DNA of 64,000 bases from a bacterium (GTDB lineage: Bacteria; Zhuqueibacterota; QNDG01; CAYUAG01). The stretch's first letter is position 1; each line of letters starts with the position of its first letter. Shown in pieces: positions 3,597 to 53,023 of this stretch. The notes under the pieces are model-generated. The model was not told where the DNA came from. It did no database searches and saw nothing but the letters and a program-made list of their open reading frames with translations. A program made the position numbers and the translations under genes. The stretch is taken from contig JAWODZ010000126.1 of the NCBI GenBank assembly GCA_046483025.1, positions 11,981 to 75,980 of the forward strand. The letters are read 5' to 3'.

Positions 3597-4577
3597 ATGG
3601 GAAAAGAAACAAACAGTAATAGTAAGGATCTGAAAAAAAGAAAATCAACTCAAGAGAAAAAGGGATCTGTCAGAGAGTTTTTTGAATCACTTGTTTTTGC
3701 AGTAGTAGTAGCTTTGGTAATACGGGCACTGGTAATCTATCCTTTTCGTATTCCTACTGGTTCTATGGAGGATACACTTTTGATAGGAGATTTTTTACTG
3801 GCTAACAAGTTTGTCTATGGGATTCGTTCTCCGGACTGGATTGGAATACCAACTACCAGAGTTGGTTTCAGTATTCCATTTTTTCGCACTCCGGGATTCA
3901 GAAAACCGAAAAAAGGAGATGTGGTTATTTTTAAATATCCTCAGGATTCCCAGTTGAATTATATCAAAAGATGCGTGGGGGTGAGTGGGGATACTATTTT
4001 GATCCGTGACAAAGTTTTATATATTAATGGGGAAAAATTCCCGAATCCTCCTGAATCCAAATTTATCAATTATCAAACTGCTCCGGAAGATTTTATTCAA
4101 CCGGAAATTTTTCCTCCGGGAGCAGGTAATATTGATTTTTATGGCCCGGTGCGGGTTCCGGCAAAAGGGGATACTTTTCATTTTACCCAGTCAAATAAAG
4201 ATGAATGGTTTGAACGGTTTCAGCTTATGGTGTACGAAGGGAATAAGCTGGAGATCTCCTATAAAGGGGAATCAATAGCGTTAACTGTTGACAATCAAAA
4301 TCGATGGCAGAGAGCAATTCAGGTTTATCCGCCGGAATCATTTCTTGTAAATGGTACACCTGTTAATCAAGTGGTATATGAAGTGGAAAATCGTCACTAT
4401 TTTATGATGGGCGACAACCGGGACAACAGTCTTGACAGCAGATACTGGGGATTTCTTCCGGAAAGATATGTGGTGGGAGAAGGGTTGATAATATATTTTT
4501 CCTGGAACAAAGATGTTCCTCTGTACAGGATTTTTAAAAAAATTCGCTGGGGCAGGATCCTGAAACTCATCAGATAA
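3597..4577 (+). CDS. lepB: signal peptidase I (S26 family)
   Basis: N-terminal TM helix, catalytic Ser box GSMEDTL, and conserved box E region (MMGDNRDNSLDSRYWGF). Classic lepA-lepB synteny. Confidence 0.9.
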   Translation: MGKETNSNSKDLKKRKSTQEKKGSVREFFESLVFAVVVALVIRALVIYPFRIPTGSMEDTLLIGDFLLANKFVYGIRSPDWIGIPTTRVGFSIPFFRTPGFRKPKKGDVVIFKYPQDSQLNYIKRCVGVSGDTILIRDKVLYINGEKFPNPPESKFINYQTAPEDFIQPEIFPPGAGNIDFYGPVRVPAKGDTFHFTQSNKDEWFERFQLMVYEGNKLEISYKGESIALTVDNQNRWQRAIQVYPPESFLVNGTPVNQVVYEVENRHYFMMGDNRDNSLDSRYWGFLPERYVVGEGLIIYFSWNKDVPLYRIFKKIRWGRILKLIR

Positions 4578-7257: not shown

Positions 7258-8691
7258 ATGTCAGATAAGTATTCATTTATTATTGACGGAGAACATTGTA
7301 CCTCGGGAGAGGTTCTGGAAGTGAAAAACCCTTACAAAAGTGAAGTTATTGGTGTTGTTTTCCGGCCCGGGGATTCTGAGGTGGAAAGATCCATTGAATC
7401 GTCAGTCCGCGGCTTTCAGAAGAGCAGAAAATTTCCAACTTATAAGCGATCCCAGCTTCTTGCTTCCGCAGCATCCACTATTGATAAAAGAAAAGAGGAG
7501 CTGGCAGCCCTACTCTGCCGGGAGTCAGGAAAACCAATAAAATTCGCTAAAGCAGAGGTGCAAAGAGCAGTCAGCACTCTCAGCATTGCCTCTGAAGAGG
7601 CAACCCGTATAGTAGGAGAAACTGTGCCCCTGGACATAACTGAAAAAGCAGGAGATCGTCTGGGTATTGTACGCCGGTTTCCTGTAGGACCGATTGCCGG
7701 AATTACTCCCTTTAATTTTCCTCTTAATCTGGTGTGTCATAAAGTTGCACCTGCTTTAGCAGCGGGCAATACCATCTCTATTAAACCTGCCACAGCAACA
7801 CCGCTCTCAGCCCTGACTCTGGGGGAGATTTTTCTGGAGAATGATATCCTGCCGGGTTTTTTGAATGTTATTCCCTGTTCTTCACAGACAGCTGATAAAC
7901 TGGTTACAGATCCACGGATTAAAATGATCACCTTTACCGGCAGTGCGGAGGTAGGATGGAATCTTAAATCCGAGGCAGGAAAAAAGAAAGTCTGTCTTGA
8001 GCTGGGGGGAAACGCAGCAGTCGTAATAGAGCCGGATTGTGATATTAAAACAGCGGTGCAGCGCTCTATTCTGGGAGGTTTTGCTTTTTCCGGGCAGGTA
8101 TGTATTTCAGTACAGCGGATCTTTGTACATGAGAAGATTTTTGATGAGTTCACTGAATCCTTTCTCCGGGAAGTAAAGAAACTCATCCTGGGAGATCCTC
8201 TTTCCGAAAAAACGGATATAGGTCCTATGATTGATGAGGGTGCAGCTATACGAACTGAAGAATGGGTAAAAGAGGCAACCGATAAGGGAGGAAAAATCCT
8301 CACCGGTGGGGAACGGGATGGAAATATGTTCGCGCCCACAGTATTGACCAATGTACCTGCTGAGGCCCGGGTTTGCAGCGCTGAAGTTTTTGCTCCGGTG
8401 GTAGTTATGGAAAAGTATACATCTTTTGAGGATGCGCTTGATAAAGTAAACGATTCTGTTTTTGGTCTGCAGGCAGGAGTGTTTACCAGAGATATTGACA
8501 AGGCCTTCCGTGCTTTTAATACCATAGAAGTGGGAGGTGTGATAATCAATGACGTGCCTACTTTCAGAGTTGATTCCATGCCCTATGGAGGAGTAAAGGA
8601 GTCCGGATTCGGACGGGAAGGTGTCAAGTATGCATTAGAGGAAATGACAGAATTAAAGATTATGGTGGTTAATCATGGGCTGGACCGGTGA
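7258..8691 (+). CDS. NAD(P)-dependent aldehyde dehydrogenase (GapN / succinate-semialdehyde DH-like)
   Basis: 477 aa. Motifs ITPFNFP, catalytic Glu in ELGGNAAV and catalytic Cys in FSGQVCISV. Ends with a TGA stop. Confidence 0.85.
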   Translation: MSDKYSFIIDGEHCTSGEVLEVKNPYKSEVIGVVFRPGDSEVERSIESSVRGFQKSRKFPTYKRSQLLASAASTIDKRKEELAALLCRESGKPIKFAKAEVQRAVSTLSIASEEATRIVGETVPLDITEKAGDRLGIVRRFPVGPIAGITPFNFPLNLVCHKVAPALAAGNTISIKPATATPLSALTLGEIFLENDILPGFLNVIPCSSQTADKLVTDPRIKMITFTGSAEVGWNLKSEAGKKKVCLELGGNAAVVIEPDCDIKTAVQRSILGGFAFSGQVCISVQRIFVHEKIFDEFTESFLREVKKLILGDPLSEKTDIGPMIDEGAAIRTEEWVKEATDKGGKILTGGERDGNMFAPTVLTNVPAEARVCSAEVFAPVVVMEKYTSFEDALDKVNDSVFGLQAGVFTRDIDKAFRAFNTIEVGGVIINDVPTFRVDSMPYGGVKESGFGREGVKYALEEMTELKIMVVNHGLDR

Positions 8692-41067: not shown

Positions 41068-42234
41068 ATGGCAACAGATCCTATTTGCGGTATGAAAGTA
41101 GATGAAAAGCATGGATTAAAACTCACTCATGAAGGTAAAACCTACTATTTCTGCAGCCAGCATTGTATGGAAAAATTTATTGAAGAAAACCAGATAACCG
41201 GAGTTCAATGTACTGAATGCGGTCCGGAAGCAAAGCAGCCTTTTTACCGCAATAAGCTGTTTATTGTTGTTTCCGCATTAGCAGTACTGTCGTTATTGTC
41301 TTTTTGGATTCCTTTTCTACAAGCCTTCCGCAGAGAATTATTCGACTATTTCCGAATGATCTGGTGGGCAATTCTGCTGGGGCTGGTTCTTGGAGGTGTG
41401 ATCGATTATTTTATTCCCAGAGAGTATGTCTCCCATGTACTTGCCCGGCCCTCCAAACGAACCATTGTTTATTCCGTATTTGTGGGATTTCTCATGAGTG
41501 CCTGTTCCCACGGAATACTGGCCCTTGCCATTCAGCTTTATAAAAAGGGAGCTTCGGTGCCGGCAGTGGTGGCCTTTCTCTTGGCCAGTCCCTGGGCAAA
41601 TATGACTCTGACTATTATGCTTATTGGTCTTTTCGGACTCAAAGCTCTCTTCATTATCCTCTCTGCCATTGTAGTCGCAATTATTACCGGACTGATATTT
41701 CAGGTTCTGGAAAAGGCAAAGCGGGTGGAAACCAATCCTCATTCAATTCCTTTTGATGAAAAATTTTCCATTGTGCAGGACATTAAAAAAAGAGTAAGAC
41801 AAACCAAGCTAACCTCTTCTACAGTGGGAGAAGCTTTCAAAGGGATTTTTCAGGGGATAGTCAGCCTGAGCAATATGGTTCTGTGGTGGATTCTGATTGG
41901 TATGGGGCTGGCGAGTTTGGCCGGAGCCTATGTTCCCAGTTCTTTTTTTGTGAACTATATGGGCCCTACCATTGCGGGACTTCTGATTACTCTGGCTTTT
42001 GCTACTATTATTGAAATATGTTCCGAAGGCTCGGCTCCCATGGCTTTCGAGATTTTCAAACAAACTGCCGCCTTTGGCAACAGTTTTGTGTTTCTTATGG
42101 CTGGTGTGGTTACTGATTACACCGAGATCGGACTGTTATGGCATAATGTAGGGAAGAAAACCGCAATTATGCTTCCAGTGATCACAGTTCCTCAGGTGAT
42201 CTTACTCGGTATGCTGGCTAACTGGCTGTTTTAG
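41068..42234 (+). CDS. YHS/TRASH metal-binding domain fused to a DUF318-type permease
   Basis: N-terminal DPICGMKVDEK...YYFCSQHCMEKF (YHS), then a second Cys cluster CTECGPE, then about 8 TM helices with an EICSEGSAP motif. Confidence 0.7.
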   Translation: MATDPICGMKVDEKHGLKLTHEGKTYYFCSQHCMEKFIEENQITGVQCTECGPEAKQPFYRNKLFIVVSALAVLSLLSFWIPFLQAFRRELFDYFRMIWWAILLGLVLGGVIDYFIPREYVSHVLARPSKRTIVYSVFVGFLMSACSHGILALAIQLYKKGASVPAVVAFLLASPWANMTLTIMLIGLFGLKALFIILSAIVVAIITGLIFQVLEKAKRVETNPHSIPFDEKFSIVQDIKKRVRQTKLTSSTVGEAFKGIFQGIVSLSNMVLWWILIGMGLASLAGAYVPSSFFVNYMGPTIAGLLITLAFATIIEICSEGSAPMAFEIFKQTAAFGNSFVFLMAGVVTDYTEIGLLWHNVGKKTAIMLPVITVPQVILLGMLANWLF

Positions 42235-42913: not shown

Positions 42914-44014
42914 ATGTTTATTGATCCTGTATGTGGTATGGAAATAAAGGATGATACATATTCCCTGTTGAGGAAAGGCAGACTATATCACTTTTGTTCT
43001 GAAGGATGTATGAAGCGGTTTAAAAAGTCAAAAGGAAAGTACATTAAACGAAAAGATTACGATCTTATTATTATTGGAGGAGGACCTGCTGGATTGACAG
43101 CAGCTGTCTATGCATCCATGCAACATCTGGATACTTTTCTCATCACCAAAGATATCGGTGGTCAGGCCATTGATAGTACAAAAGTTAAGAATTATATGGG
43201 ATTTGATTTTATTACAGGACCGGAACTGACCTCTAAATTTCAAAACCAATTTCTTCACACCCATTTCATCGATCATCGAATTGGTGAGGTCATTGCTATT
43301 GAGAAAAAAGAGAATCGGTTCTTGCTCCGAACCAGAAATGGAGAAAACTACATTGCCCTTTCCATTATTCTGACGACCGGCATGCAGAGAAAAAAACTTG
43401 GAGTACCTGGTGAGGAGAGACTTCAGCGCCAAGGGATTTTTTATAATCGGGTTCAAGATACCGGCCTCTTGGAGGATATTCCAGTAGCTGTGATCGGTGG
43501 TGGCAATACAGGCGTTCAGGCAGCATTGGACTTATTCAAGGTGGCTTCTAAAGTAACTCTGATTACTTTCGAAGATTTAACTGCCGACGCTCATTTGAAA
43601 AAAGATATTCAACGGTCACCTATACAGGTGTTCACACAGTATGCGGTTGTATCTATCGAAGGAGAAGATCGAGTCAAAGGAGTTGTTATTAGGCCTCGGT
43701 CAGGAGGCAAGACGATTTCTATTGAAGTGGGAGCAGTTTTTGTTGGGATTGGTTTAATGCCCAATACTTCACTAGTATCCAAACTTCTAAAAAGAAACAA
43801 ATTAGGAGAGGTCGTCATCTCAAAGGATTGTTGGACTTCTGTTCCTGGAATTTTTGCAGCTGGCGATGTTACGGATGTTCATGATAAAAGAATCGTTATC
43901 GCTTCGGGAGAGGGTGCAAAGGCAGCACTTGCTGCCCATCGTTATTTGAAAGAATTGAAGAGGAGTAATTCAAATTTTAATAAAGGAAAATTGGAGGATG
44001 TTGATTATGAATAA
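42914..44014 (+). CDS. YHS domain fused to a thioredoxin-reductase-like FAD/NAD(P) flavoprotein lacking the CxxC redox disulfide
   Basis: N-terminal [23 protein letters not shown]. FAD motif [12 protein letters not shown]. The region aligning to Trx[13 protein letters not shown] reads [13 protein letters not shown], with no Cys. GGGNTG second dinucleotide fold. GD motif AAGDVTD. Confidence 0.75.
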   Translation: [366 protein letters not shown]

Positions 44015-46094
44015 ACCTCCGGATTCAAGAAATAAGGATTACCAACAACATGATGAGAAGAATATGGGGCGTAAGAGGCATAAAGGTCAAAAGATACATG
44101 AATCGCATGACCAGCAGGTACACTCTAATCATAACAGGCATCATGATCACCATGCCCACATGGTGGCTGATTTTCGCAAACGGTTCTGGATTTCCCTGGG
44201 AGCAACCATCCCTATTTTGATCTTGTCGCCCATGATTCAGGGTTTTTTGGGTTTTACACAGGCGCTTGATTTTCCGGGGGATGTGTATGTATTATGGACT
44301 CTTTCCTCGTTTGTTTACTTTTACGGCGGCTGGCCCTTTCTCAAAGGACTTTTTAATGAACTGCAAAAGAAACAGCCCGGAATGATGACCTTGATTGCGG
44401 TTGCTGTTACTACAGCTTATGGTTACAGCAGCATAGTTGTTTTCGGTTTGAGCGGAAAGGTTTTTTTCTGGGAATTAGCCACGCTTATCGATATCATGCT
44501 TTTGGGGCACTGGATTGAAATGAAGTCGGTCATGGGTGCTTCCCGCGCCCTGGAAGAGATTGCCAAACTCATGCCTTCCGACGCCCACAAAGTCATGGAG
44601 GACGGAAGTACCGAAGACGTTCCCATCGAAGAGCTCCAGCCCGGGGACAAGGTTCTGATAAAACCGGGAGAGAAAGTTCCGGTCGACGGAGAGGTGGTGG
44701 AAGGCGAGAGCTCGGTGAATGAGGCCATGTTGACCGGAGAATCCAGGCCGGTGGAAAAACAAACCGGGTCCAGAGTGATCGGTGGTTCCCTTAATGGTGA
44801 AGGCGCAATCACTACAGAAGTACAAAAAACAGGTAAGGATTCTTTTTTGTCCCAGATGATCGATCTGGTGGAACAGGCTCAGAAAAGCAAATCCAGAAGT
44901 CAGGATCTGGCCAATCGTGCTGCTTTATGGCTTACTATCATTGCCCTTACAGTGGGAGTGATCACTTTGGCAGTATGGCTGGTTATCCTGGAAAGGGACT
45001 TTTCTTTTGCACTGGAAAGGACGGTGACAGTTATGGTGATCACCTGTCCTCATGCCCTGGGACTTGCAGTACCCTTGGTTGTTGCTGTATCCACCGCACT
45101 TTCCGCCAAGAACGGCCTTCTTATACGGGATCGGGCTTCTTTTGAGAGAGGACGTAACATCCAGGCAATCATCTTTGACAAAACCGGTACCCTGACCAAG
45201 GGTGAATTCGGTGTAACTGATACAATTTCATTTTCTGATGGAATGGATGAGAAAAAATTACTTGAATATGCTGCTGCAGTGGAAGCACATTCAGAACATC
45301 CTATAGCAAAAGGAATTGCTGCTTCAGTTGAAAAACCACCTGGTGTCAAGGATTTCAAGGCTATACCCGGAAAAGGTGCCCAGGGTCTGGTTGAGGGAAA
45401 GCAGGTCAAAGTTGTAAGTCCTGGTTTTCTCAGAGAAAATAATATGTCCAGGCAAGATGAGAGGATCGACACATTCAATTCCCAGGCGAAAACCGTGGTT
45501 TTTGTGATAATTGATGGAGATCTCAAAGGGGCTGTTGCACTGGCGGATATTATCAGGGAGGAATCCAAAGAAGCTATCTCCAGACTCAAGGGAATGGGAA
45601 TAAAGTGCATGATGCTCACTGGTGACAACAATCTGGTCGCCAAGTGGGTTGCAGAGGAGATAGGTCTGGATGAATATTTTGCTGAAGTTTTGCCCCAGGA
45701 TAAAGCTGAAAAAGTTAAGGAGGTTCAGTCACGGGGGTTGATTGTGGCAATGACCGGAGACGGTGTCAATGATGCTCCAGCCCTTGCCCAGGCCGATGTG
45801 GGCATTGCTATCGGCGCCGGGACGGATGTTGCAGTCCAAACAGCTGATATTATACTGGTTCACAGCAATCCCCTGGATGCTGTGGCCATTTTGGATCTTT
45901 CCCGGGCTACTTACCGGAAGATGGTACAGAATCTGGGATGGGCAACCGGTTACAATGCTTTTGCCATCCCTTTAGCTGCCGGAATTCTATTCAAATACGG
46001 TATACTTTTGAGTCCTGCAGCAGGTGCTATTTTAATGTCATTGAGTACAGTAATTGTGGCCATCAATGCAAGATTTTTAAAGATTAAGCATTGA
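43998..46094 (+). CDS. copB: heavy-metal P1B-type ATPase, CopB-like (P1B-3, CPH motif, His-rich N-terminus)
   Basis: His-rich N-terminus HKGQKIHESHDQQVHSNHNRHHDHHAHM. TM6 CPH (ITCPHALGL), not CPC. DKTGTLT phosphorylation site, GDGVNDAP hinge. Confidence 0.85.
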   Translation: MLIMNKPPDSRNKDYQQHDEKNMGRKRHKGQKIHESHDQQVHSNHNRHHDHHAHMVADFRKRFWISLGATIPILILSPMIQGFLGFTQALDFPGDVYVLWTLSSFVYFYGGWPFLKGLFNELQKKQPGMMTLIAVAVTTAYGYSSIVVFGLSGKVFFWELATLIDIMLLGHWIEMKSVMGASRALEEIAKLMPSDAHKVMEDGSTEDVPIEELQPGDKVLIKPGEKVPVDGEVVEGESSVNEAMLTGESRPVEKQTGSRVIGGSLNGEGAITTEVQKTGKDSFLSQMIDLVEQAQKSKSRSQDLANRAALWLTIIALTVGVITLAVWLVILERDFSFALERTVTVMVITCPHALGLAVPLVVAVSTALSAKNGLLIRDRASFERGRNIQAIIFDKTGTLTKGEFGVTDTISFSDGMDEKKLLEYAAAVEAHSEHPIAKGIAASVEKPPGVKDFKAIPGKGAQGLVEGKQVKVVSPGFLRENNMSRQDERIDTFNSQAKTVVFVIIDGDLKGAVALADIIREESKEAISRLKGMGIKCMMLTGDNNLVAKWVAEEIGLDEYFAEVLPQDKAEKVKEVQSRGLIVAMTGDGVNDAPALAQADVGIAIGAGTDVAVQTADIILVHSNPLDAVAILDLSRATYRKMVQNLGWATGYNAFAIPLAAGILFKYGILLSPAAGAILMSLSTVIVAINARFLKIKH

Positions 46095-46143
46095 ATAAAA
46101 TACGAAAATTTGAATCGCATCTATTAACTATAAAAAGAGGGGT

Positions 46144-46860
46144 ATGGTAATGAACGTAAAATTGGTTATTTTGATTTTTGGAATCTTAATATTTAATCTA
46201 CAGTTTGCTCATACTCAACATATTGAAGAAGAGCATGAAGATCATTTTCTGCATCCATTTCTGGCTCATATGGCACTCCCGGACAGGCCCGGTGAAATTA
46301 GTGTCAGAGTGTCTCCGTTTCAAGAACGTTTGGGTGTGGAGACGATTCAAGACATTGGTGTCCATATTGAAGCAGGAATTTTACCAAGACTGGGCCTTCA
46401 TGTCAGGAATGATGCGATAAAAGAAGGTCCTTATACGGAAATGATGATCATGTACGCTCTTATCCAAAATACTTCACTGAGTAGAGGTATCAGTCTATTT
46501 GGTCAGTTAAGTATACCGACAGGCCCGATTGAGTCCAATCGGAACAGGACATTGTTCGGATTAGCAGCCAGGGAAACCTTGAAAAAATTCGTTATCATCA
46601 ATACAAATGTTCATATTGATGTCAAAGAGGAGATGGCAGATATTGGAAGTTCTTTCGTATTTCGGCTATCGGAAAAATTATATCCTATCTTTGAAGTACA
46701 TGGAGAAATAGGAGAAGAAGAAACACATGCATCCGGCTTGTTTGCTTTAAAATTCAGGGTTAAACAACATACTGGTCTGGGATTTGGGTTCCAATTTCCC
46801 TTCAGTGGACATAAAGAATATGATACCCAATTGCTGGCCACTTTCGATTTGACTTTTTAA
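46144..46860 (+). CDS. secreted beta-strand-rich protein with His-rich N-terminus, putative outer-membrane barrel
   Basis: Signal peptide. HIEEEHEDHFLHPFLAHM. Alternating hydrophobic pattern. C-terminal ...ATFDLTF. Confidence 0.5.
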   Translation: MVMNVKLVILIFGILIFNLQFAHTQHIEEEHEDHFLHPFLAHMALPDRPGEISVRVSPFQERLGVETIQDIGVHIEAGILPRLGLHVRNDAIKEGPYTEMMIMYALIQNTSLSRGISLFGQLSIPTGPIESNRNRTLFGLAARETLKKFVIINTNVHIDVKEEMADIGSSFVFRLSEKLYPIFEVHGEIGEEETHASGLFALKFRVKQHTGLGFGFQFPFSGHKEYDTQLLATFDLTF

Positions 46861-46880
46861 TATAAAGGAGGAGATCAAAT

Positions 46881-47084
46881 ATGTTCGGAGGAATGATTAT
46901 TATCTGGATTTTTATAGTTGTAGGAGTTATCTGGTTGATCAGATATTTGACTGAACAAAAAAATATGAAAAATAATGAAATGGAAAAAGAAACCAGCGCC
47001 CTGGATATATTGAAAATACAATATGCCAAGGGTGAGATCAACAGAGAAGAGTTCAAGAAACGTAAAAAAGATTTAGAAAATTAA
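46881..47084 (+). CDS. SHOCT-domain small membrane protein (copy 1)
   Basis: One TM, then ALDILKIQYAKGEINREEFKKRKKDL, the SHOCT signature. Confidence 0.7.
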   Translation: MFGGMIIIWIFIVVGVIWLIRYLTEQKNMKNNEMEKETSALDILKIQYAKGEINREEFKKRKKDLEN

Positions 47085-47088
47085 AAAA

Positions 47089-47340
47089 TTGAAAGGAGTG
47101 AAAATTATGCATGACTGGGGAATGATGAACTGGGGCTGGGGCGGTATGATTGTTCAATTGCTTTTCTGGATAGTTATTATTGTTGCTATTATCTGGGCAA
47201 TCAGGCATTTTACCGGACCTGGTCGAAGTGATGGATCTGCTTCCGGCAGTGAATCGGCTCTGGATGTACTGAAAAAACGTTACGCCAGCGGAGAGATCGA
47301 CAAACAAGAATTTGAAGAAAAGAAAAGGGATATTTTATGA
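47089..47340 (+). CDS. SHOCT-domain small membrane protein (copy 2)
   Basis: W/G-rich N-terminus, one TM, ALDVLKKRYASGEIDKQEFEEKKRDIL. An alternative start at 47107 is possible. Confidence 0.7.
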   Translation: MKGVKIMHDWGMMNWGWGGMIVQLLFWIVIIVAIIWAIRHFTGPGRSDGSASGSESALDVLKKRYASGEIDKQEFEEKKRDIL

Positions 47341-47732
47341 AAAAAACTTCATATGCATTCACCAAAACAGTAAATAGAGATTTTGACCAAACCATTCAGA
47401 AACTTACGGAAGAATTGAAAAAGGAGGGTTTTGGTATTCTGACTGAGATTGATGTTCAGGCTACTCTTAAGAAAAAACTGGATGTTGATTTCAGGCCTTA
47501 CAAGATTCTGGGTGCTTGTAATCCTTCCTTTGCCTATAAAGCCTTACAGGCGGAAGAACAGATCGCATTAATGCTGCCCTGTAATGTTATTGTGTATGTG
47601 AATGAAGAGAAAGAAACCGTAGTCGCAGCTATTGATCCGGAGGCCTCAATGACGGCAATTGATAATCCTGAATTACAGGGAATCAATAAAGAAGTTCAGA
47701 CCAAGCTCAGATCAGTGATTGAGCGATGTTGA
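47337..47732 (+). CDS. DUF302 domain protein
   Basis: 131 aa. GFGILTEIDVQATLKKKLDV...YKILGACNP is the DUF302 core. Confidence 0.7.
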   Translation: MKKTSYAFTKTVNRDFDQTIQKLTEELKKEGFGILTEIDVQATLKKKLDVDFRPYKILGACNPSFAYKALQAEEQIALMLPCNVIVYVNEEKETVVAAIDPEASMTAIDNPELQGINKEVQTKLRSVIERC

Positions 47733-47779
47733 GAGAATAAGAAAAGATTAAAAAATTTTTGTAAGGAGGTGAACGAATT

Positions 47780-48016
47780 ATGCACGGATGGGAGTTTATG
47801 CACTGGGGCTGGTTTGGTTTTATTGTGCAGATTATTTTCTGGGTAGCAATCATACTGCTTATAGTATGGGTGGCAAAGAAAGTCACAGAGTCAGGTTCCG
47901 GAGATCGATCTTCTTCTGCGGGAGAATCAGCCCTGGACATTTTGAAAAAAAGATATGCCAAGGGAGAGATTGACAAAGATGAGTATGAAAAAAAGAAAAA
48001 GGACTTGACTGCATGA
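47780..48016 (+). CDS. SHOCT-domain small membrane protein (copy 3)
   Basis: MHGWEFMHWGW.. TM, then ALDILKKRYAKGEIDKDEYEKKKKDL. Confidence 0.7.
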   Translation: MHGWEFMHWGWFGFIVQIIFWVAIILLIVWVAKKVTESGSGDRSSSAGESALDILKKRYAKGEIDKDEYEKKKKDLTA

Positions 48017-48274: not shown

Positions 48275-48781
48275 ATGAAAAAACAATTATTCATTTTATT
48301 GGTAAGTATGCTGGTACTGGCTTTGTTTACATTGCCGGTTTTTTCTCAGCAGCATCATAAAAAAGAGAAACAGGAAAAAATGGAAATGATGCAGCATGGA
48401 AAAATGATGGGAGAACAGAAAGGTATGATGGATATGCATCAGATGAATGTTATGATGGATTCTACCATGAAGAGATGCAAAATGACAAATGAGTACATGC
48501 AGAAAATGAAAGACAGTCAAATGATGGGTGGTAAAATGGGTATGAAATCCATGATGGGAATGAATCAGAACCTGGAGGGAATGGCACAACAGATGAAGAT
48601 GATGACTGAAAACATGGAAACAATGATGAACAGCGAAGAGATGATGTCTGATAAAGATTTTATGGAACATATGAATAAAATGCATGAAATGATGTCACAG
48701 ACTTCCAAAAACATGGACCAGATGGCAAAGATGATGCATAGTATGATGGAGCAGACTGACAAACAAAAAGAGATGGAATAG
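48275..48781 (+). CDS. secreted methionine-rich protein (about 30% Met; MxM/MxxM repeats), putative Cu(I)-binding periplasmic protein
   Basis: Signal peptide, then MEMMQHGKMMGEQKGMMDMHQMNVMMDSTM...MMSQTSKNMDQMAKMMHSMMEQ. SD ggagag upstream. Confidence 0.7.
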   Translation: MKKQLFILLVSMLVLALFTLPVFSQQHHKKEKQEKMEMMQHGKMMGEQKGMMDMHQMNVMMDSTMKRCKMTNEYMQKMKDSQMMGGKMGMKSMMGMNQNLEGMAQQMKMMTENMETMMNSEEMMSDKDFMEHMNKMHEMMSQTSKNMDQMAKMMHSMMEQTDKQKEME

Positions 48782-49676: not shown

Positions 49677-51926
49677 ATGAAGAAAATTTTAGGGATTCTA
49701 CTGGTTTTGTTATTATTTAATACAGTTTTTGCTCATAATGAATTGACTCCCACAGTCAATGGGGATTCTATTATTTATGAGCTTACCATTCATTATAAAA
49801 CCGTCAATTTTACCGGAAAAGAAACCCAGGCCATAGCGGTGAACAATTCCATTCCGGCTCCCGTGCTCCGGTTTCAGGAAGGTAAAATTGCTGTAATACA
49901 AGTGACAAACGAAATGTCGGAAGAGGCGTCCATTCACTGGCATGGACTGATTCTGCCTAATTTTCAGGATGGAGTACCCTATCTTACTACACCTCCCATA
50001 CGTGCCGGTAAAACCTTTACTTACAGTTTTCCGCTCAAACAGTCAGGCACTTACTGGTATCACTCCCATACCGGGCTGCAGGAACAAAAAGGATTATACG
50101 GCGGGATTATAATTGAACCCAGAGAAAGTACAATTCAGTACGATCGGGATCTGGTCCTGGTGCTTTCGGACTGGACGGATCAGGATCCCCGCAAGGTTCT
50201 TAAAAACCTGAAACGTCATAATGAGTGGTACGGAGTAAAGATCGGAAATGCTCCCTCACTCTGGGATGCAGTAAAAAATAACACCTTGATACCCCAGTTT
50301 AAATTATGGGCTGATCAGATGCCGGGCATGCATATATCTGATATTTATTATGATGCTTTTTTGATCAACGGTAAGAAGGAACAGGTATACGAAGATTTTT
50401 TACCTGGTGAAGAGGTCAGGTTACAGGTAATAAATGCTGCTGCCTCCAGTTATTTCTGGCTCACCTGGGCCGGAGGTGATTTGGAGATTATCTCAGCAGA
50501 TGGCCTGAATGTACAGCCGGTTAAAGCTGAGAAAGTTTTGATCGGGATAGCGGAAACTTATGATTTTATCATTACAATTGCGGAAGGTAAAAGCCTTGAA
50601 TTCAGGGCCACTGCTCAGGATGTTACCGGAAGTTCATCTGTTTTTATGGGGAGAGGAAAAAGAACAGAAGCTCCCGGGATCCCTTTTCCCAATTATCAAA
50701 AGCTGGGAAGAAAGATGGCAGAGCTGCACGGGGGAGGAGACAGTATGGAGCTTAAAGGTGATGAAAAAGGTGATTTAAAAAAGCATGATAATGTCATGAA
50801 AATGTCCAGTGATCATTCTACAGATAAAATGCAGAAAAATACGGACTCAGCCATGCAGCATACCATGCAGGAAGAACATGGTATGAAAGTAACCGATCCC
50901 ATGATTATGTGGAACGCGGGGTATTCTAATACAATATTAAAATCAGTGGAACCGACAAAATTTTCCCAGGATTCCCCGGTAAGACATCTGGTTTTAAATC
51001 TTACAGGTGATATGTGGCGATATAACTGGAATATCAACGGAAAACCTCTCTCAAAAGCGGATAAGATCAGGATAAACAAAGGTGAAGTAGTCCAGATTAC
51101 TCTGAACAATACTACTATGATGCATCATCCCATGCATTTACACGGTCATTTTTTCAGAGTGCTGAATGGTAATGGAGATCATTCTCCCCTGAAACATACA
51201 GTGGACATACCCCCAATGAGCAGAACAACCATTGAATTTGCTGCCTCAGAAGATAAAGACTGGTTCTTTCACTGTCATATTCTGTATCATATGTCAGCGG
51301 GTATGGCCCGGATTTTCAGTTATAATCACAGCATTAGAGATAAAAGACTTGATAAATATCCACTCAAAAATTTCTTAAAACATGACAGTGAATGGTTTTT
51401 CTGGGGTGATATCAGCGGATTAAGTCATAAGGGGGTACTTGAACTGGTTTTGTCCAACACCTATAATCAAATTAATCTAAAAGCAGAATATGGGTGGCAA
51501 CAACAGATATATGAAGCCAAATTAGACTATGAACGATTTATCCAAAATTATTTCAGAATATACACCGGTCTGAAAGCTGAAACCGAAGAAGCTGATAACT
51601 GGGATGATCCGCATACATCCGGCAGAGTCGGTATTCGGTATTTACTTTTGTATATTTTAGATACGGATATAAGCATTGATCATCAACTGAGACCGGAAAT
51701 AGCCTTGGAAGCCCATCTGCCTCTTACCAAACGCCTGATATCGGCAGGGCATCTGGAATGGAAAAATGATTTTGGCTGGATCAATGAATTACCTGAAGGT
51801 GTGAACCAGGAAGGGGAGCTGGTCTGGAATGTGAATCTTGAATATATTTTAGGAAAGAATTTTTTGCTTTCAGCCGGATATGATAATCGTTTTGAGTGGG
51901 GAGGGGGACTTAAAATATTATTTTAA
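49677..51926 (+). CDS. multicopper oxidase (CopA/CueO-like) with Met-rich insert and an about 210-aa C-terminal beta-rich extension ending in Phe
   Basis: Copper motifs HWHGL, WYHSH, HPMHLHGH and HCHILYHMSAGM. Met-rich segment MKMSSDHSTDKMQKNTDSAMQHTMQEEHGMKVTDPMIMW. Extension from about residue 540 ends ...GGGLKILF. Confidence 0.8.
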   Translation: MKKILGILLVLLLFNTVFAHNELTPTVNGDSIIYELTIHYKTVNFTGKETQAIAVNNSIPAPVLRFQEGKIAVIQVTNEMSEEASIHWHGLILPNFQDGVPYLTTPPIRAGKTFTYSFPLKQSGTYWYHSHTGLQEQKGLYGGIIIEPRESTIQYDRDLVLVLSDWTDQDPRKVLKNLKRHNEWYGVKIGNAPSLWDAVKNNTLIPQFKLWADQMPGMHISDIYYDAFLINGKKEQVYEDFLPGEEVRLQVINAAASSYFWLTWAGGDLEIISADGLNVQPVKAEKVLIGIAETYDFIITIAEGKSLEFRATAQDVTGSSSVFMGRGKRTEAPGIPFPNYQKLGRKMAELHGGGDSMELKGDEKGDLKKHDNVMKMSSDHSTDKMQKNTDSAMQHTMQEEHGMKVTDPMIMWNAGYSNTILKSVEPTKFSQDSPVRHLVLNLTGDMWRYNWNINGKPLSKADKIRINKGEVVQITLNNTTMMHHPMHLHGHFFRVLNGNGDHSPLKHTVDIPPMSRTTIEFAASEDKDWFFHCHILYHMSAGMARIFSYNHSIRDKRLDKYPLKNFLKHDSEWFFWGDISGLSHKGVLELVLSNTYNQINLKAEYGWQQQIYEAKLDYERFIQNYFRIYTGLKAETEEADNWDDPHTSGRVGIRYLLLYILDTDISIDHQLRPEIALEAHLPLTKRLISAGHLEWKNDFGWINELPEGVNQEGELVWNVNLEYILGKNFLLSAGYDNRFEWGGGLKILF

Positions 51927-51975: not shown

Positions 51976-52614
51976 ATGAAGTTAACATTTCTGGGAACTC
52001 GTGGGTACATTGAGGCTCGAAGCCGCCATCACCGGATGCACAGTTCCCTGATGGTCAGCTATCAGGGTAAAAAAGTAATGATCGACTGCGGTGAGGACTG
52101 GCTGGGAGCAGTATATGATCTTCATCCCCGGGCTATTGTGCTCACGCATGCGCATCCGGATCATGCCGGGGGACTGAAGGGGGAAGCTCCCTGTCCGGTG
52201 TATGCTATCCGAGTATCCTGGGAAAAGTTAAAGGATTACGGAATCGAGAAGCGAGTAACTATACCGGAAAGAAAGGCGGTGACAATTGCCGGGATTACTT
52301 TCCAGGCTTTTCCCGTGGATCATTCCACCCGGGCTCCTGCAGTAGGGTACCGTATCAGCGCCGGAAAGGTGACGATTTTTTATGCCCCGGATCTGGTCTG
52401 GATCCATGACCGTACAGCAGCTCTTTCCGGGGTTAAGGTATACATCGGAGACGCGGCTACTATCAGTAAATCCCTGGTGCGCAAGATGGAGGGGAATTTA
52501 ATCGGGCATACTTTTCTTCGTACTCAACTGACCTGGTGTCAGAAAGAAGGAGTTCCCCGGGCCATATTCACTCATCTTGGCGCTGAGATTGTGGAGGGTG
52601 ACGAGCGTTCTTAA
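51976..52614 (+). CDS. MBL-fold metallo-hydrolase (truncated by an in-frame TAA; ancestral frame continues to 52698)
   Basis: HxHxDH motif LTHAHPDHAGG. After the TAA at 52612-52614 the same frame encodes KARIKKLAEERGVQVQIAWDGREEILR, which looks like the usual A.DG..I.L MBL C-terminus. Confidence 0.7.
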   Translation: MKLTFLGTRGYIEARSRHHRMHSSLMVSYQGKKVMIDCGEDWLGAVYDLHPRAIVLTHAHPDHAGGLKGEAPCPVYAIRVSWEKLKDYGIEKRVTIPERKAVTIAGITFQAFPVDHSTRAPAVGYRISAGKVTIFYAPDLVWIHDRTAALSGVKVYIGDAATISKSLVRKMEGNLIGHTFLRTQLTWCQKEGVPRAIFTHLGAEIVEGDERS

Positions 52615-52786
52615 AAAGCCAGGATAAAAAAACTGGCTGAGGAGCGGGGAGTGCAGGTACAGATTGCCTGGGACGGCAGGGAAGAGATTTTGAGATAGTT
52701 CTGTTGACAATATCAATTTTATATTTTGGCTTGATCTTCTTTTTTCAAGTTGTAAAATCAAAGCCATAGTATCTGTAACATAACTA

Positions 52787-53023
52787 TTATTCATACGGAT
52801 ATATCTTTTTACAATTGTTAAATTCCTCTTCTAAATGTACCAAGGATATTTTATTTAGACTGCTTAATTTAGTATTTATGTTTTTTTCGAAAGATTGATC
52901 TACGATATCTTTGAGTTTTTTAGTTTTAATAAACTGAATAAAATCTAAAATTTCATTTAATGACTCGAATGACAAATTTTTTGTTTCTTCAATAATCATT
53001 TTTTCTAATATTTTTTTACTCAT
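52787..53023 (-). CDS. hypothetical small protein (78 aa) in an AT-rich patch
   Basis: Minus-strand ORF with SD GGAGAAAAT upstream. No recognisable domain. Confidence 0.4.
   Translation of the reverse strand: MSKKILEKMIIEETKNLSFESLNEILDFIQFIKTKKLKDIVDQSFEKNINTKLSSLNKISLVHLEEEFNNCKKIYPYE

Follow-up and report, generated by a model that had tools for sequence, protein, structure and literature searches.

SHOCT membrane mini-proteins and a DUF302 protein in a bacterial copper island, and their neighbourhood with P1B ATPase genes across distant phyla

The TM-SHOCT and DUF302 genes

The stretch of DNA analysed here (the window) comprises 64,000 nucleotides of contig JAWODZ010000126.1, from a bacterium of the Zhuqueibacterota. 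At positions 46881 to 48016 it carries a module of four genes. [quoted passage not shown] By their Pfam matches these genes belong to the known, uncharacterised families SHOCT and DUF302, and we found that the neighbourhood of TM-SHOCT, DUF302 and P1B ATPase genes is conserved across distant phyla.

S1 (46881..47084, plus strand) encodes a TM-SHOCT protein of 67 amino acids (aa) that matches PF09851 with 31.4 bits (E = 1.5e-7) and is preceded by the ribosome-binding site (RBS) AGGAGG. This short-tailed protein consists of an N-terminal tail of three residues (MFG), one TM helix (residues 4-20) and a C-terminal SHOCT hairpin. S2 (47107..47340, plus strand) encodes a TM-SHOCT protein of 77 aa with the extracytoplasmic tail MHDWGMMNWGWG (PF09851, 41.7 bits, E = 8.4e-11). 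An alternative reading of S2 from TTG 47089, which would yield 83 aa, is also open; since the RBS falls within this TTG-started reading and the homologs begin with MHDWG, the 77-aa protein starting at ATG 47107 is the likely product. The stop codon of S2 shares an ATGA overlap with the start codon of the DUF302 gene (47337..47732, plus strand), whose product of 131 aa is predicted to be cytoplasmic and matches PF03625 with 93.1 bits (cutoff 23, E = 9.4e-27). S3 (47780..48016, plus strand) encodes 78 aa with the tail MHGWEFMHWGWFGF (PF09851, 39.5 bits, E = 4e-10). A GGAG-type RBS lies 7-9 nucleotides upstream of each of the three SHOCT genes.

Membership in the SHOCT family was decided by the Pfam gathering score of 27 bits, which S1, S2 and S3 all exceed, and SHOCT was their only Pfam or NCBIfam match above threshold. 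Matches to GvpG and DUF4083 (Pfam) and to PP0621 (NCBIfam) stayed below threshold, covered the TM or charged-helix parts and were rejected, the GvpG match reflecting the composition of a TM segment plus a charged helix. The Pfam hidden Markov model places the SHOCT domain in the final 27 residues of each protein, and each contains a single strongly hydrophobic 17-mer with a mean Kyte-Doolittle hydropathy of 2.9. In the AlphaFold2 model of S3, a helix spans residues 4-42 (pLDDT 86-90 in its membrane part) and is followed by a disordered linker (41-49) and two helices (51-61 and 66-77, pLDDT ~60). A sequence search for a solved TM-SHOCT structure returned chance TM matches only.

Most of what an initial annotation, made from the sequence without database searches, had said of this layout was borne out. 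Three TM-SHOCT genes with a DUF302 gene between the second and third copies are indeed present as open reading frames (ORFs), all on the plus strand and with Pfam matches above the gathering score, and each SHOCT protein has one TM segment. Its two W/G-rich N-termini were quoted correctly. Of the three lengths, 67 and 78 aa stand and 83 aa is likely to be replaced by 77 aa; the C-terminal motif running to ...DL is shared overall, with the exception of copy 2, which ends ...RDIL.

The gene of a CopB-type P1B ATPase and a gene named orf238, both described below, precede S1. The gaps along ATPase, orf238, S1, S2, DUF302 and S3 are 50, 20, 22, -4 (overlap) and 47 bp, and no terminator-like site was found inside 46095-48016. 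Because the gaps are short and the stretch contains no such site, the genes from the ATPase to S3 may plausibly form a single operon.

A word-indexed search with S3 returned 265 matches, nearly all of 70-85 aa and all of them PF09851, which are annotated merely as 'SHOCT domain-containing protein' or 'putative membrane protein' and come from taxa including Nitrospirota, KSB1, Patescibacteria, Hydrothermarchaeales and Aenigmatarchaeota. An exhaustive profile search yielded 8,370 clusters (50% identity) at E ≤ 1e-10, a number that rose to 26,748 with the limit set to E ≤ 1e-3. Only one match, in Thermococcus, was obtained when S3 was compared to plasmids by tblastn, probably by reason of low-complexity filtering. 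In the family alignment, the N-terminal tail and the linker vary, the TM helix between them keeps an FW...I...W/F pattern, and the ALDILKKRYAKGEIDKEEFEEKKKDL that follows the linker is nearly invariant. In 99 short members, the tails contain 32% G, 13% M, 10.6% W, 10% F and 8% Y, Met and Trp being several-fold enriched; lysine and arginine together amount to 0.12 residues per tail, compared to 2.3 in the 12 residues following the TM helix. Owing to this positive-inside bias, the proteins are predicted to adopt an N-out, C-in topology with the SHOCT domain in the cytoplasm. Such a location is in line with a published proposal that places SHOCT-like domains at the inner leaflet (PMC11237479). 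It is independently supported by longer members, in which a cleavable-looking signal peptide, a Met/His-rich domain of ~100 aa or a cytochrome c domain stands ahead of the tail-TM-SHOCT unit; the cytochrome c domain (PF13442, E = 4e-9) is found N-terminal to the unit in P0243. In P0131, P0199, P0216, P0228, P0236 and P0260, the unit follows a periplasmic domain of ~100 aa without Pfam match, which in this subgroup of the family has two cysteines, a conserved H-E-x-M-D-Q-M-M-G-G-E-G-S motif and poly-Met/Gly stretches.

Within the module, a Gly/Trp/Met/aromatic-rich tail of 12-20 residues is present in S2 and S3, compared to the three residues of S1, and an amino-terminal X-His or X-X-His motif is likewise present in S2 and S3. 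Across the family, His is over-represented at N-terminal positions 2-3 (22 of 156 distinct N-termini; binomial p = 2.5e-8 against positions 4-16, with phylogenetic non-independence ignored).

Gene neighbourhoods and divergence of the three copies

More than 530 genome loci encode a relative, and the neighbourhoods of the best 80 were sampled by labelling their ORFs by BLASTP against the window proteins; at least 18 kb of sequence was available in only 33 of the 80. These loci come from Patescibacteria, Ignavibacteria, Bacteroidota, Nitrospirota, Gammaproteobacteria, Bdellovibrionales, Elusimicrobia, Chloroflexota, Actinomycetota and others. A P1B ATPase gene, mostly of the CPC and sometimes of the CPH type, lies within 3 kb of the SHOCT gene in 26 loci. 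The two genes are on the same strand in 28 of 31 pairs, 13 same-strand pairs are within 700 bp, and the SHOCT gene is found upstream and downstream of the ATPase gene about equally often. The minimal genomes of several Patescibacteria carry a SHOCT gene immediately next to a copA-like ATPase gene. A DUF302 gene lies within 1.2 kb of the SHOCT gene in 20 loci, in both orders and on the same strand in 16 of 21 pairs; the gaps of 11 same-strand pairs range from 0 to 126 bp and are at most 42 bp in many lineages. Altogether, 38 loci have an ATPase or a DUF302 gene near the SHOCT gene and 8 have both. Taking a textbook background of roughly 1-3 P1B ATPases and 0-3 DUF302 genes per genome, chance adjacency in 80 loci would be far below one for DUF302 and about one for the ATPase. 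The initial annotation had described the DUF302 gene as inserted between SHOCT copies. As a quarter of the sampled loci (20 of 80) carry one at that distance, on either side, it is a conserved partner gene of TM-SHOCT and not an interloper.

Individual loci illustrate these associations. According to precomputed Pfam matches, the gene order is ArsP-HMA / SHOCT / ATPase / Pyr_redox / SHOCT / DUF302 in locus L084, which thereby keeps the order of an S2-like gene followed by DUF302, and HMA-HMA-ATPase / DsbA / SHOCT / multicopper oxidase / second ATPase in locus L090. In locus L087 (4720-5805), a gap of 9 bp separates the gene of a CsoR/RcnR-family repressor from a SHOCT gene downstream of it, and next comes the gene of a 185-aa protein in which DUF302 is fused to a C-terminal YHS domain. 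The repressor has an x-C-H-H fingerprint, unlike the x-C-H-C of CsoR, the C-terminal Cys motif of the fusion protein is of the YHS/TRASH type, and a separate YHS protein and an HMBD-ATPase are encoded in the vicinity. A small P-II gene (PF00543) was seen beside SHOCT genes or CusA-type RND pumps in L085/L086 (7327-9122), L094 (4924-5274) and L097 (3785-4126). In L085, a SHOCT pair is flanked by P-II and by an ArsR-type regulator plus an SBF/ACR3-like transporter, a non-copper context.

The DUF302 protein of the window has no signal peptide and is homologous over its full length to TT1751 (1J3M, E = 2.4e-22) and also to APC35924 (1Q9U, E = 2.1e-15). Two cysteines, C61 (GACNP) and C82 (LPCN), are invariant: the window protein has both the CNP and the (L/M)PC motif, and both cysteines are kept in 1J3M, in 1Q9U and in 27 of 27 correctly read DUF302 proteins of SHOCT loci. 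A CopZ/HMA-type chaperone fold was considered for this protein and rejected, as there is no HMA match and the cysteines are 21 residues apart in separate motifs. Close homologs (~70% identity) are plentiful in Ignavibacteria, Calditrichaeota, Bacteroidota and KSB1. The best 120 homologs are all single-domain proteins, the fusion to YHS having come from the look-up of the L087 neighbourhood, and no fusion of DUF302 to SHOCT was seen among the DUF302 homologs and neighbourhoods looked at.

Expression evidence for the family was found in one dataset only. In the archaeon Haloferax alexandrinus, a SHOCT membrane protein showed a log2 fold change of 4.64 at 0.25 mM silver and was not induced at 0.1 or 0.5 mM (PMC10694973). 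In the library that was searched for SHOCT or DUF302 with copper, for COG3462/DUF2078 and for TT1751, no paper was found that connects either domain with P1B ATPases.

The three SHOCT genes lie on one strand inside 1.1 kb, an arrangement that would fit a recent local triplication of one gene, retained for the benefit of an increased dose during metal or envelope stress. The initial annotation had proposed a role related to dosage and had suggested alignment of the copies as a check for recent duplication. The alignment did not show recent duplicates. Protein identity is 45% between S1 and S2, 44% between S1 and S3 and 56% between S2 and S3, DNA identity among the three is 68-69%, and of the 36 non-Met/Trp residues in which S2 and S3 agree, only 19 have the same codon in both genes, so that synonymous sites are largely randomised. 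Moreover, S3 is 83% identical to its ortholog P0002, the lone SHOCT gene of a syntenic relative (L081), and the identity of S2 to P0005, P0006 and P0007 is 65-70%, reaching 70% with a gene of another lineage. Given these low identities, the diverged codons and the fact that S2 and S3 are both nearer to genes of other organisms than to each other, S1, S2 and S3 are old, divergent paralogs and not a recent triplication. The difference between the short-tail and long-tail architectures, the recurrence of a short-plus-long tandem in other organisms and the occurrence of SHOCT and DUF302 in either order elsewhere also speak against triplication, which we regard as very improbable.

The short-plus-long tandem was found in 'bacterium BMS3Abin05' (L085/L086), in which a short-tail gene (68 aa) is followed by an S2-like gene (78 aa); the short-tail form also occurs in L094. 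Orthology of S1 to the 68-aa gene of L085 was not retained, the architecture matching but the identity of 42% not exceeding that to other paralogs. In 7 of the genome loci, and also in L084 and L092, two or three TM-SHOCT genes lie within a few kb of each other. Multiplicity is thus a recurrent minority feature that arises from divergent paralogs rather than from amplification. The short-tailed S1 and the long-tailed S2 and S3 would probably form hetero-oligomers or serve separate partners instead of adding dosage, and we read the multiplicity of the genes as ancient paralog specialisation. In L084, the SHOCT paralogs at 4032-4265 and 8001-8240, which flank the ATPase gene, share an identical stretch of ~34 aa (QSRSIAPSSSRDSALDILKKRYAKGEIDREEFEQKKRD) and have differing N-terminal halves, which suggests gene conversion between them.

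The syntenic metagenomic contig L081 has the order YHS-ArsP / ATPase / DUF302 / one SHOCT / Met-rich / methyltransferase / multicopper oxidase / ... / cupredoxin. Compared to it, the window has an additional block, orf238-S1-S2, between the ATPase and DUF302 genes, as well as RseC and a YHS-oxidoreductase before the ATPase. This block may represent either an insertion in the window or a loss in the L081 lineage.

The surrounding copper island

The putative operon begins with the gene of the CopB-type P1B copper ATPase (43998..46094, plus strand, 698 aa), which matches the Pfam families E1-E2_ATPase and Hydrolase and, above cutoff, TIGR01511 (copper-translocating P-type ATPase, E = 1.6e-192). 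The protein has a His-rich N-terminus (HNRHHDHHAH) and a CPH motif (VITCPHALG) and is devoid of an HMA domain. It is followed by orf238 (46144..46860, plus strand), which codes for a predicted secreted 12-stranded outer-membrane beta-barrel of 238 aa. This protein belongs to a rare family with invariant His/Met residues and has no Pfam or NCBIfam match; it may be an outer-membrane copper channel, possibly analogous to PcoB.

On the 3' side of the module, genes for a Met-rich protein, a methyltransferase, a multicopper oxidase, an MBL-fold protein and a cupredoxin follow. The Met-rich gene (48275..48781, plus strand), located 258 bp 3' of S3, encodes a secreted Met/His-rich protein of 168 aa with a signal peptide, an extreme Met content and also His, Gln and Lys. 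It keeps its position in L081-L083, its only family match is spurious and sub-threshold, and its product looks like a candidate periplasmic metal sponge in the style of PcoE/SilE. The multicopper oxidase (49677..51926, plus strand, 749 aa) matches Cu-oxidase_3, Cu-oxidase and Cu-oxidase_2 of Pfam, and TIGR01480 (copper_res_A) with E = 2.2e-119, under the cutoff of that model. Its Cu-oxidase domains stop near residue 548, and the C-terminal extension of ~200 aa, which ends ...GGGLKILF, has the look of amphipathic beta-strands; it may be a fused outer-membrane barrel, in a fusion of the CopA-CopB/PcoA-PcoB type. The counterpart in L081 is of the same length class (746 aa).

Upstream of the ATPase gene lie the genes of a YHS-fused ArsP-type permease (41068-42234, plus strand) and of a YHS-fused pyridine-nucleotide disulfide oxidoreductase (42914-44014, plus strand), with an RseC/MucC-like gene between them. 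Genes for the YHS-oxidoreductase, RseC, the methyltransferase and the cupredoxin reappear in the distant copper clusters L092 and L094. Two small overlapping ORFs (98 and 78 aa; 52498-53023, minus strand) between the MBL-fold and cupredoxin genes have a toxin-antitoxin-like arrangement. An MxCxxC motif scan of the whole window detected no CopZ-like or HMA-domain ORF, and an Rfam scan of 40-54 kb detected no element. With a CPH/His-rich P1B ATPase, two YHS-domain proteins, a multicopper oxidase, a cupredoxin and a Met-rich secreted protein, the term copper island, as used in the initial annotation, is a fair description.

Proposed function and comparison with known systems

From the gene content of the island and the recurrent neighbourhoods, a role of the module in copper or soft-metal homeostasis appears likely, and we lean towards S1-S3, in the membrane, and the DUF302 protein, in the cytoplasm, being accessory components of a Cu(I)-export island. 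The metal part of the role initially suggested for these genes thus gains from the recurrence of the copper link in many phyla and from the silver induction in an archaeon, and the part that concerned dosage by triplication is at odds with the divergence data.

The following mechanism can be envisaged. The TM helix would place the SHOCT protein in the membrane next to the pump, and the charged, highly conserved SHOCT hairpin in the cytoplasm would act as a docking element at the inner leaflet. This hairpin may recruit the DUF302 protein, which is the best candidate partner because of the translational coupling in the window and the gaps of at most 42 bp in many lineages; that SHOCT docks DUF302 is possible, although we place it on the unlikely side. 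The Cys pair of DUF302 may handle Cu(I), or a thiol or persulfide ligand, by the pump of a locus without CopZ. At the exit face, the Met/Trp-rich periplasmic tail, together with the N-terminal His of S2 and S3, might provide a weak contact or sensing site for Cu(I)/Ag(I) or Cu(II); metal binding by the tail is rather doubtful. Taken as a whole, TM-SHOCT and DUF302 would constitute an unrecognised accessory system, of very broad phylogenetic spread, for P1B ATPases that export Cu(I). In it, SHOCT would tether DUF302 as a thiol-based hand-off or sensing device that could substitute for CopZ, and metal on the exit side would be captured or reported by the tail. We put this forward very tentatively.

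Several observations weigh against such a system. The association of the TM-SHOCT proteins with the pump is deduced from genetic linkage. About half of the 80 loci, many of them on short sequence, have no ATPase or DUF302 gene nearby, and non-copper contexts occur (P-II/ArsR/SBF in L085, ArsR/FeoB in L089). The enrichment over chance is an estimate made against a textbook background rate of these genes. The composition of the tail is a family-wide trait and may indicate a plain interfacial Gly/aromatic segment. The idea that tails are richer in Met and His beside ATPases was rejected, since the trend is the opposite one (2.65 residues per tail in ATPase-adjacent members vs 3.86, p = 0.16). The His residues of S3 vary even among its closest orthologs P0002-P0004, S1 is practically tail-less, the SHOCT domain contains no Cys, His or Met ligands, and the sole published oligomerisation test of SHOCT was negative (PMC3581485).

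Some of these points would be expected if the TM-SHOCT proteins were generic mini-proteins of membrane or envelope stress, with the hairpin at the inner leaflet and the tail at the outer interface, that stabilise or mark stressed membranes and lie close to metal pumps by co-regulation. The loci without ATPase or DUF302, the non-copper contexts and a tail composition unrelated to ATPase adjacency fit this explanation, as do the very large size and ubiquity of the family; SHOCT-like domains are also predicted to anchor proteins at the inner leaflet and are found in PSP-type envelope-stress neighbourhoods (PMC11237479). However, SHOCT genes are tightly and operonically associated with those of P1B ATPases, only tens of bp apart, and this holds for the minimal genomes of Patescibacteria as well. 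A CsoR-family repressor gene precedes SHOCT and a DUF302::YHS fusion in L087, Met/His-rich periplasmic domains are fused onto the tail-TM-SHOCT unit, and none of the neighbourhoods examined showed a Psp, Lia or Toastrack gene. We consider a generic stress function unlikely.

The other contexts of DUF302 raise a different question. Metal-efflux clusters with DUF302 and without SHOCT exist in L095 (MerR, Metal_resist) and L097 (CzcB-CusA, P-II, HMA-ATPase), and the Legionella plasmid pLELO carries DUF302 in a metal cluster with a P-type ATPase, likewise without SHOCT. In addition, DUF302 is found in sox clusters (PMC5037610), in CsoR-family-regulated sulfur dioxygenase/rhodanese modules (PMC6305408) and in a TusA/DsrE/rhodanese/YeeE cluster of a Halobacterium plasmid. 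These occurrences, too, count against a dedicated copper system. The thread common to them is thiol chemistry with soft metals or sulfane sulfur. The pair might handle reactive sulfur (persulfide, thiosulfate, sulfide) or thiol redox rather than metal, being located in copper islands since Cu(I) detoxification couples to thiol and sulfide chemistry. The sulfur clusters just mentioned argue for this possibility, together with the two invariant cysteines of DUF302 and the YHS-fused pyridine-nucleotide disulfide oxidoreductases, rhodanese fusions and DsbA/thioredoxin genes of the window and related loci. The recurrent partners in SHOCT loci are nevertheless copper pumps, multicopper oxidases, YHS/HMA proteins and cupredoxins and not sulfur-relay genes, YHS, the fusion partner of DUF302, is a putative metal-binding domain, and the one sulfur-relay context inspected contains no SHOCT gene. 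A sulfur function is in our view quite improbable, and an accessory role in copper or soft-metal homeostasis is the reading that we prefer.

The copper link drawn from this locus is thus right and far broader than one locus. What is new is a bitopic SHOCT subfamily whose genes are linked to those of copper P1B ATPases and DUF302 in lineages that range from Patescibacteria to Proteobacteria, as well as a new context for DUF302, with its invariant Cys pair and its fusion to YHS downstream of a CsoR-family repressor gene. To our knowledge, SHOCT (tens of thousands of clusters) and DUF302 (thousands of clusters) are large prokaryotic families with no assigned function that are absent from the usual model organisms. 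The conserved neighbourhood provides a testable functional context for these two domains, and if a membrane-docked DUF302 does act in hand-off or sensing, this would be the first biochemical role for both of them together.

SHOCT is PF09851, formerly DUF2078 (Eberhardt et al. 2013, PMC3581485), and the paper that described the family leaves its function open. S1-S3 resemble the family in the C-terminal position of the domain, the predicted two-helix hairpin and the L-D-x-L-x-x-R-Y-A-x-G-E-I core. The same paper (PMC3581485) makes no mention of copper, P-type ATPases or DUF302, and its supplements contain no architectures with DUF302, HMA, YHS or ATPase domains; the copper-pump/DUF302 neighbourhood is an addition of the present analysis. 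The DUF302 protein of the window is of the same size as the TT1751-like proteins of known structure (1J3M and 1Q9U), with full-length homology and both Cys motifs. Those solved proteins are uncharacterised, and the literature puts DUF302 mainly in sulfur-oxidation clusters, whereas the window protein belongs to a copper island, where it shows translational coupling with a SHOCT membrane protein, and its relative in L087 is fused to YHS.

Small proteins and segments of related design are known from other metal and ion transport systems. Met/His/Trp motifs for Cu(I) are carried by Ctr1 ectodomains, CusF and PcoE/SilE. The TM-SHOCT tail is similarly enriched in Met and Trp just before the TM helix, and a subset of tails has an amino-terminal X-His or X-X-His as in Ctr1; unlike in those proteins, Gly and aromatic residues dominate the tails, the canonical MxxM/MxM repeats are not conserved, and S1 has practically no tail. 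KdpF, the FXYD proteins and phospholamban/sarcolipin are small bitopic regulators of P-type ATPases that pack against the pump. They serve other ATPase subfamilies and show no homology to the TM-SHOCT proteins, whose genes also occur without an adjacent pump, but both have a short end outside the cytoplasm and a charged segment inside it. CcoS/FixS is a small single-pass membrane protein encoded beside the P1B ATPase CcoI/FixI (ccoGHIS/fixGHIS) and serves in the maturation of cbb3 oxidase. Membership of S1-S3 in the CcoS/FixS, KdpF, FXYD or phospholamban families was rejected, as no Pfam or NCBIfam match to any of them was obtained, and CcoS has no SHOCT domain, so that the likeness to CcoS/FixS is one of analogy only. 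Within this analogy, both are tiny single-TM proteins that are genetically coupled to a copper P1B ATPase, for which an accessory rather than a transport role would be shared.

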